Assembly: GCF_003991155.1 (NCBI RefSeq)
Contig: NZ_CP031295.1
Strand: one strand, 5' to 3'
Source of the DNA: Escherichia coli
GTDB lineage: Bacteria > Pseudomonadota > Gammaproteobacteria > Enterobacterales > Enterobacteriaceae
DNA length: 64,000 nt
The position numbers and the translations under genes were made by a program. Positions 1,430-1,711 of the stretch are shown one piece after another (positions within the stretch are counted from its first letter, which is position 1; every line of letters starts with the position of its first letter). Below the pieces are notes generated by a model. That model was not told the origin of the DNA, did no database searches, and worked only from the letters and a program-made list of their open reading frames with translations.

Positions 1430-1711
1430 ATGATTTATAAAGATATAACTATTCTTTACATCGATAGTGGTAAAAACAATCGACTCATCCGTTATGATTT
1501 ACTGCGAAAAGAAAATAATGACTTTGTTGTTCAAGTGTTTGATGACCAGAATGAAGACATTGCTGATCCTAAACCAACAATAAAAATTGATCAGTTTGAG
1601 ATCACTTATGATAATTACCTTGATAATTGCAAGCATTCCAATAAGTTACCGGCCTCATTTGAAGAATATGTCGACATAAAATTACAGGACCACCGGGATA
1701 AGCTTGATTAA
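1430..1711 (+). CDS. hypothetical acidic protein (93 aa) in a low-GC segment
   Basis: ORF with GAGG 8 nt upstream of ATG; AT-rich unlike flanks; no recognisable motif. Confidence 0.45.
   Translation: MIYKDITILYIDSGKNNRLIRYDLLRKENNDFVVQVFDDQNEDIADPKPTIKIDQFEITYDNYLDNCKHSNKLPASFEEYVDIKLQDHRDKLD

Follow-up and report, generated by a model that had tools for sequence, protein, structure and literature searches.

In phage lambda, the bor gene lies behind Rz/Rz1. Genes of this kind, which are extra to the phage, usually independently expressed, and inserted between conserved phage genes, are known as morons (PMC2629481). Here, we analysed a 64-kb stretch of Escherichia coli DNA (the window) that contains a 93-aa open reading frame (ORF), the product of which is listed in RefSeq as a "hypothetical protein" (WP_000639434.1) and is a member of PHROG 31348. 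Two members of this family have an intrinsic terminator inside a phage late operon. Unlike morons, the copy in the window is not in a phage.

A complete low-GC gene in an IS mosaic

The original prediction, made from the sequence, had described a low-GC ORF for an acidic protein, with a good ribosome-binding site (RBS), within an AT-rich 400-bp island between insertion sequence (IS) remnants. The position was as predicted, exactly 1430..1711 on the plus strand, and the 93-aa product is indeed acidic, with 20 acidic and 13 basic residues, a pI of 4.68, and a net charge of -7. As for the RBS, a Shine-Dalgarno GAGG at 1418..1421 (+) is found 8 nt 5' of the ATG; an alignment shows that the Klebsiella locus described below has retained the block ACTGACACAATGAGGTT. 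The GC content of the ORF is 32%, against 52% for the whole 64-kb window. The AT-rich island also exists but it is 450 bp rather than 400 bp long, spanning 1347..1796 with 35% GC, as delimited by composition and by alignments to the Enterobacter (L003) and Klebsiella plasmid (L018) loci. When taken together with the first base of the adjoining IS1, it forms a 451-bp stretch (1347-1797), also of 35% GC, that ranks in the lowest 1.2% when every window of that length in the 64 kb is considered (z = -2.5). There are other low-GC stretches in the window. The strongest (28000-29900, 30% GC) is ordinary, corresponding to the traM-traJ-traY regulatory region of the F transfer operon, another (6876-7676) corresponds by coordinate mapping to a MipZ-like gene and the intergenic region before parM, and a further one lies at 43650-44300.

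Five codons upstream of the ATG there is an in-frame TGA, and therefore no N-terminus was removed by IS3. Upstream of the ORF, the -10-like hexamer TATATA at 1365..1370 (+), which aligns with TATAAT of the Klebsiella homolog locus and comes without a convincing -35, is a candidate promoter; a sigma-70 scan of the window found no full sigma-70 promoter upstream of the ORF on the plus strand. Downstream, there is a terminator-like hairpin at 1734..1761 (+), GGCTCAGAACATTTTAAATGTCTGAGCC, with an energy of -16.3 kcal/mol (z = -3.4) and a weak U tail (ATTTCTC). It was not called by a terminator pattern scan, its T run being too short. The hairpin of the Enterobacter homolog reads GGTTCAG...CTGAACC, then ATTTTTTT, and its alignment with the window reveals a compensatory C>T / G>A change. 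No Rfam family matched the AT-rich island.

On the left of the island, the left part of an IS30 (<1..429, minus strand) runs past the window start, with its terminal inverted repeat ending at 429; in an identical plasmid locus it is annotated as "IS30-like element IS30 family transposase." This element was inserted into an IS3, of which only the orfB part is left at 430..1346 (+). The remnant contains an orfB-type transposase ORF (516..1328) and its right end, ...GGCGATTCA, is at 1346, the exact terminal base being assigned by the TG...CA rule that the ends of IS3-family elements follow. It is annotated as "IS3 family transposase, incomplete, missing N-terminus" in identical plasmid loci. In related plasmids, a further intact IS3-family copy is inserted in the IS30. 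On the right of the island is IS1 (1797..2564, minus strand), with insA at 2234..2509 and insB' at 1812..2189. The ORF is thus next to a remnant on the IS3 side, as had been predicted, but not on the other, where IS1 is complete at 768 bp. Since IS1 has no target-site duplication (its flanks are TGGCCATCG and TTTTGCGTC), the junction between the island and rclA is the result of an IS1-mediated rearrangement and not of a simple insertion. The rclA gene (2618..3943, +), for the reactive chlorine resistance oxidoreductase, is a chromosomal E. coli gene captured without rclR, and IS1 sits 53 bp upstream of it, replacing rclR and the native rclA promoter. In related plasmids, rclA has IS1 on one side and IS26 on the other. 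This gene is unrelated to the ORF, to which it is joined only through IS1.

The window is an IncF plasmid. Its first 25 kb are 99.9% identical to IncFIA/IncFIB F-type conjugative plasmids, and the plasmid genes found there include those for a MOBF relaxase, tra genes, psiAB, ssb, umuDC, and parM. Of the 5,426 complete E. coli genomes, 160 contain the 451-bp stretch with 100% identity (137 places on plasmids and 34 on chromosomes), and in PLSDB there are 199 plasmids, from Escherichia, Salmonella, Klebsiella, and Shigella, that encode the protein. In the E. coli and Salmonella loci that we inspected, the same mosaic of IS30, IS3 remnant, ORF, IS1, rclA, and IS26 is present, with a different left side in the ETEC1720 variant, and a native IS-free context of the ORF was found in no E. 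coli genome. The plasmid copies are ~100% identical, so that there is no selection signal from the plasmid itself; a few variants are truncated or frameshifted (P0005-P0008). Literature searches for WP_000639434.1 and for the rclA/IS1/IncFIB mosaic returned no papers.

Some loci show how this unit has been rearranged. On the chromosome of E. coli ETEC1720 (L017, 1-8600), the ORF-IS1-rclA unit is found beside kefB-GI, psiE-GI, htpX, and the gene for a DegP-like protease of the transmissible heat-resistance locus (tLST), from which only transposase fragments separate it. On the chromosome of an E. coli ST540 strain (L002, 7000-16451), the IS30-IS3 remnant-ORF-IS1 mosaic occurs twice, ~7.4 kb apart, near plasmid-type genes, which suggests an integrated plasmid segment with a duplication. 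P0009, an apparent homolog with 59% identity, was not used as an independent homolog; it is a 108-aa chimera in which the last 39-47 residues of the ORF are fused to unrelated sequence. Its gene lies at a contig end (L008 8001-8327), adjoining the plasmid's vapBC and a YobI-type ATPase, in a rearranged variant of this plasmid region.

Relatives in a non-phage island and in prophages

Two IS-free loci encode 93-aa homologs with the same start and stop as the window protein, one in Enterobacter pseudoroggenkampii (P0002, locus L003), which is 83% identical, and the other on the Klebsiella pneumoniae plasmid pRHB26-C08_2 (locus L018), which is 93% identical. DNA identity to these close homologs is only 81-85%. 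The differences are distributed over the three codon positions as 6/4/32 and 12/7/35, i.e., 32/42 and 35/54 of them are at third positions, and the calculated dN/dS is 0.036-0.058, with synonymous sites near saturation. At the level of sequence comparison, these values indicate strong purifying selection on the 93-aa lineage outside phages. The ORF is a genuine, complete, independently translatable gene.

In the native island, which is carried by a Klebsiella MOBH conjugative plasmid and an Enterobacter contig, the gene order is cydAB, ydeP, a 99-aa paralog and an 85-aa gene, fdhD, a 75-aa gene, the 93-aa gene, DUF2913, moaEDCBA, bestrophin, and a ClpK-like ATPase. Two family paralogs thus flank fdhD. 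The window keeps only the 93-aa gene and ~80 bp on each side; as can be seen from the alignment, the side of the 75-aa gene has been replaced by IS3 and the side of DUF2913 by IS1. The GC content of the gene within the native island is 31-34%, versus 47-48% for the locus, and there too the gene looks like a later low-GC add-on between conserved operons, judging by its composition. The foreign origin put forward in the original prediction is borne out, with a GC content far below both neighbours, the closest relatives (83-93% amino acid identity) on a plasmid of Klebsiella and in an island of Enterobacter, and distant ones in prophages. On the Klebsiella plasmid (L018 7121-7718), the 99-aa paralog and the adjacent 85-aa acidic protein are encoded by separate genes, and at the corresponding place in Enterobacter (L003 6116-6694) there is one 192-aa ORF, the product of which matches the PHROG 31348 profile (E 8.4e-19). 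The two may have been fused, which would hint at a functional link, or a stop codon may simply have been lost.

The distant relatives are in prophages. In all seven distant lineages with an informative context, the gene belongs to a lambdoid prophage, where it is directly 3' of a holin-endolysin-spanin cassette, on the strand of the late operon, and in six of them a terminase is found downstream. These six are represented by P0011 from Serratia (L010), P0013 from Edwardsiella tarda (L012), P0014 (L013), P0020 from Rouxiella (L016), P0019 from Enterobacter/Cronobacter (L019-L022), and P0027 from Citrobacter (L023-L024). The seventh, P0021 from Kosakonia (L025), is located after the lysis cassette of a prophage remnant, the fetched flank of which contains no terminase. 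In an annotated prophage of E. coli OW1E2, the order is likewise Q antiterminator, tRNA, holin, lysozyme, a hypothetical gene, the family member (WP_016241761.1), further genes, terminase large subunit, gpW, and portal. The terminases beside the gene are of varying types (GpA, HK97-type TerL with HNH, and Terminase_3) and the lysis cassettes are unrelated too, and the gene is therefore not tied to one machine. Its GC content is 31-39%, versus 47-53% for the locus, in the seven of seven loci measured, the gap in prophage loci being 10-14 points. The usual home of the family is thus typically the moron slot of lambdoid prophages, between lysis cassette and terminase. There, the homologs separate genes that adjoin each other in related phages, with the spanin genes on one side and the terminase or other late genes on the other. 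The window copy and its close relatives, by contrast, are not behind a phage lysis cassette but in a non-phage island or an IS mosaic, a difference of context that leaves their membership of the family untouched.

Canonical intrinsic terminators are present 3' of the gene in two of the four prophage loci scanned (L019 and L012), and none was called there in the other two (L010 and L023). Promoter scans of the window and of prophage loci gave only 9-of-12 consensus matches, at chance frequency. In L013, 4 bp are shared between the gene and the one that follows, an arrangement more suggestive of a member of an operon than of an autonomous unit. The slot in the Serratia prophage contains a second small gene of the moron type, which comes after the family member (L010 6401-6586) and whose product resembles DNA polymerase III theta (HOT-like, 61 aa).

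The protein family and its predicted fold

When compared to the PHROGs, the window protein gave a full-length match to phrog_31348, a family of unknown function (E 7.6e-18), with residues 1-93 aligned to positions 1-99 of the 101 in the profile. An exhaustive HMMER search of 1.84 billion representatives returned 34 matches, ~25 of them full-length (95-106 aa), in which P0001, the 90%-identity cluster of the window protein (99% identical to it), scored 2.5e-46 with the family profile. The family is present in eight enterobacterial genera, the named taxa being Serratia, Edwardsiella, Rouxiella, Enterobacter, Cronobacter, Kosakonia, and Citrobacter, and all the named members are annotated as "hypothetical." It is restricted to Enterobacterales and uncharacterised. 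The family is also rare: a DNA search detected the P0019-like prophage lineage in 3-5 of the 5,426 E. coli genomes. The original prediction had allowed for an ORF with no homologs, yet homologs are present in Klebsiella, Enterobacter, and prophages. It had also proposed a homology and structure search, which was productive for homology, leading to PHROG 31348, but gave no significant fold match.

Two residues, Y22 and H88, are invariant in a 25-sequence alignment, and Y10, D23, V36, Y63, and R89 are at least 90% conserved. The window protein has all of Y10, R21-Y22-D23, V36, Y63, and Q86-x-H88-R89. Its sublineage differs from the rest of PHROG 31348 in that it 1) is without 7-10 central residues (the "GFQTSVK" segment), 2) is more acidic, and 3) is found outside prophages. 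Across the family, the pI ranges from 4.6 to 8.5 and the net charge from -9 to +2. Scans of the window protein against Pfam (E up to 10), NCBIfam, and PADLOC gave no match, and a Pfam scan of 25 family members at E up to 1 gave nothing usable. There were 0 matches when the PDB was searched by sequence with the family profile (E up to 10), no match when three different family members were compared by tblastn with 50,697 phage genomes, and no relative in a single-protein scan of IMG/VR.

An AlphaFold2 model, which was computed from the 25-sequence alignment, has a pLDDT of 87 and a pTM of 0.77. It consists of a four-stranded meander and two helices, with predicted strands at residues 5-11, 20-26, 32-39, and 50-58 and helices at 60-69 and 77-91. 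Neither Foldseek against the PDB (best E 0.45) nor BFVD (best E 0.076) provided a significant fold match, and these scores are in the noise, with hundreds of unrelated matches at the same level. The few large proteins that the family profile matches are NHL-repeat propellers, and strands 1-3 of the family are in register with successive NHL units ("LYIDSGKNNRLIRYD" versus "LYVADSANNRVMVYD"). A relation to YD/Rhs repeats, suspected from the "RLIRYD" motif, was rejected because the large profile matches are NHL-repeat proteins, not Rhs. The predicted fold is best described as one NHL-like blade with a helical hairpin. In contrast to NHL-repeat beta-propellers, which are closed and multi-bladed, the family would have a single blade-sized meander plus two helices, and Pfam NHL (PF01436) matches neither the window protein (E up to 10) nor the 25 members (E up to 1). 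The NHL similarity is at the level of motifs and could reflect convergence.

Competing explanations and relation to known systems

The explanation that we lean towards is that the ORF is a moron-type family gene, now a plasmid passenger, whose product acts alone by binding. We place high confidence in the part of this explanation that concerns identity and origin. In this view, the 93-aa acidic sublineage moved from the prophage slot into a non-phage island on Klebsiella plasmids and in Enterobacter, and the window holds a 450-bp scrap of such an island, cut on the left by IS3 and on the right by the IS1-mediated rearrangement. This scrap now travels on IncF plasmids as the fixed mosaic IS30-IS3 remnant-ORF-IS1-rclA-IS26. 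The plasmid copy is most likely a passenger, and its expression is putative.

As for function, the product would be a small soluble cytoplasmic protein that needs no dedicated partner gene and acts by binding a macromolecule of the host or of a phage stoichiometrically. It may do so through a surface composed of the four-stranded NHL-blade-like sheet and of R21-Y22-D23 / Q86-x-H88-R89, and it would be the cell or element carrying the gene, rather than the lytic cycle of the phage, that benefits. We infer solitary action by binding because the gene is conserved outside phages, without a partner gene or an enzyme signature. The binding mechanism, for which we can point to the small size, the lack of an enzyme signature, and the modelled blade-like fold, is tentative and on balance doubtful. 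A bolder version, to which we give rather little weight, is that the family might represent a new class of stand-alone prophage/plasmid effector, in which a single NHL-like blade with a helical hairpin cap, possibly assembled into a ring, would bind and modulate a target in the host or in a rival phage (e.g., anti-defence or exclusion). Such an effector would explain why strong purifying selection maintains the family in the moron slot of lambdoid prophages as well as on mobile islands that are not phages.

Other explanations have to be weighed against a passenger that acts alone. Since the gene, in prophages, invariably points the same way as the late operon and, whenever there is a terminase, is located between the genes for lysis and those for packaging, it might be an accessory to a late function in the lytic cycle (e.g., lysis timing, or a cos/terminase helper), with the plasmid and island copies as functionless leftovers. 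The 4-bp overlap in L013 and the two prophage loci out of four in which no terminator was called are in line with this. Such a role is unlikely, however, as a dN/dS of 0.03-0.06 in a phage-free island is unexpected for a gene that is useless outside the phage, the neighbouring terminases and lysis cassettes belong to unrelated types, the GC content of the gene is far below that of the late operon, and the gene is as rare as described above in E. coli genomes and absent from the tblastn results for 50,697 phage genomes. The native context of the close homologs, on the Klebsiella MOBH plasmid and in Enterobacter, suggests instead that the 93-aa lineage could be an accessory of a stress island, working with cydAB, ydeP, fdhD, moa, and the ClpK-like ATPase. 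Two family paralogs flanking fdhD would fit this, as would the ETEC1720 locus, where the ORF-IS1-rclA unit abuts kefB-GI, psiE-GI, htpX, and degP of the heat-resistance locus. Yet the links to rclA and to the heat-resistance locus were made by IS elements (IS1 being without a target duplication), the gene is a low-GC insert within the island (31-34% versus 47-48%), and distant family members have no neighbours of the cydAB/ydeP/fdhD/moa type, which makes such a partnership quite improbable.

It had also been predicted that a small acidic protein in this context might be an immunity protein, an antitoxin, or a DNA mimic. An immunity protein, antitoxin, or acidic DNA mimic (anti-restriction-like) would protect the plasmid or neutralise a toxin or nuclease, and the small size and acidity of the window protein (pI 4.7, net charge -7) are in line with this, as is its residence on a plasmid with other anti-restriction and anti-SOS leading-region genes elsewhere. 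We nevertheless regard these roles as highly improbable. When the surroundings of the homologs were checked for a toxin or nuclease, as had been advised, no neighbour common to all contexts emerged, and none of ~10 independent contexts has a toxin or nuclease gene as a conserved neighbour. There is no conserved partner gene, and an all-against-all BLAST of 18 neighbouring proteins gave one pair, unrelated to toxins. Acidity is confined to the 93-aa sublineage, with pI up to 8.5 and charge up to +2 elsewhere in the family, there is no PADLOC, Pfam, or NCBIfam match, and fold scores are in the noise, without a meaningful match to a known DNA mimic, antitoxin, or immunity protein. Moreover, the gene is ~20 kb from the plasmid's anti-restriction cluster, within an IS junkyard. 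Finally, an ORF flanked on both sides by IS elements in AT-rich DNA, a setting in which ORFs often arise at random and in which several overlapping short ORFs in other frames were listed, could be spurious or, as the original prediction had cautioned, a fragment of a larger gene destroyed by IS insertion. This is almost certainly not the case. A spurious ORF was rejected on the basis of the dN/dS of 0.03-0.06, the third-position bias, and the same-length homologs in IS-free loci, and a fragment is contradicted by the upstream in-frame stop and by full-length homologs with the same start and stop. The confident AlphaFold model, the presence of the family in eight enterobacterial genera, and the absence of an Rfam match also speak against either possibility.

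The finding mainly tidies annotation. It is now possible to describe WP_000639434.1, which is encoded on ~200 sequenced IncF-type plasmids from E. coli, Salmonella, Shigella, and Klebsiella, as the product of a genuine selected gene from PHROG 31348, a moron family that follows the lysis cassette, on a 450-bp scrap of a Klebsiella/Enterobacter island. If the family is autonomously active, it would add one more small effector, of unassigned fold, to the accessory repertoire of prophages. The conserved synteny offers an easy experimental handle, and there is no bearing on a long-standing open question.

How does the family compare to systems that have been described? It shares with Ocr, ArdA, type II antitoxins, and Rhs immunity proteins a small size, the acidity of the window copy, and carriage by mobile elements, but it differs from them in that its charge is not conserved, no cognate toxin is found nearby, and there is no profile or significant fold match. 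It has no sequence or fold relation to Bor, which is a lipoprotein, or to other characterised moron products, and the sequence of the window protein has no evident signal peptide or membrane segment. What the family does have in common with morons of lambdoid phages, such as lambda bor and P22 ant, is its place in a variable slot after the lysis cassette and a GC content well below that of its flanks.
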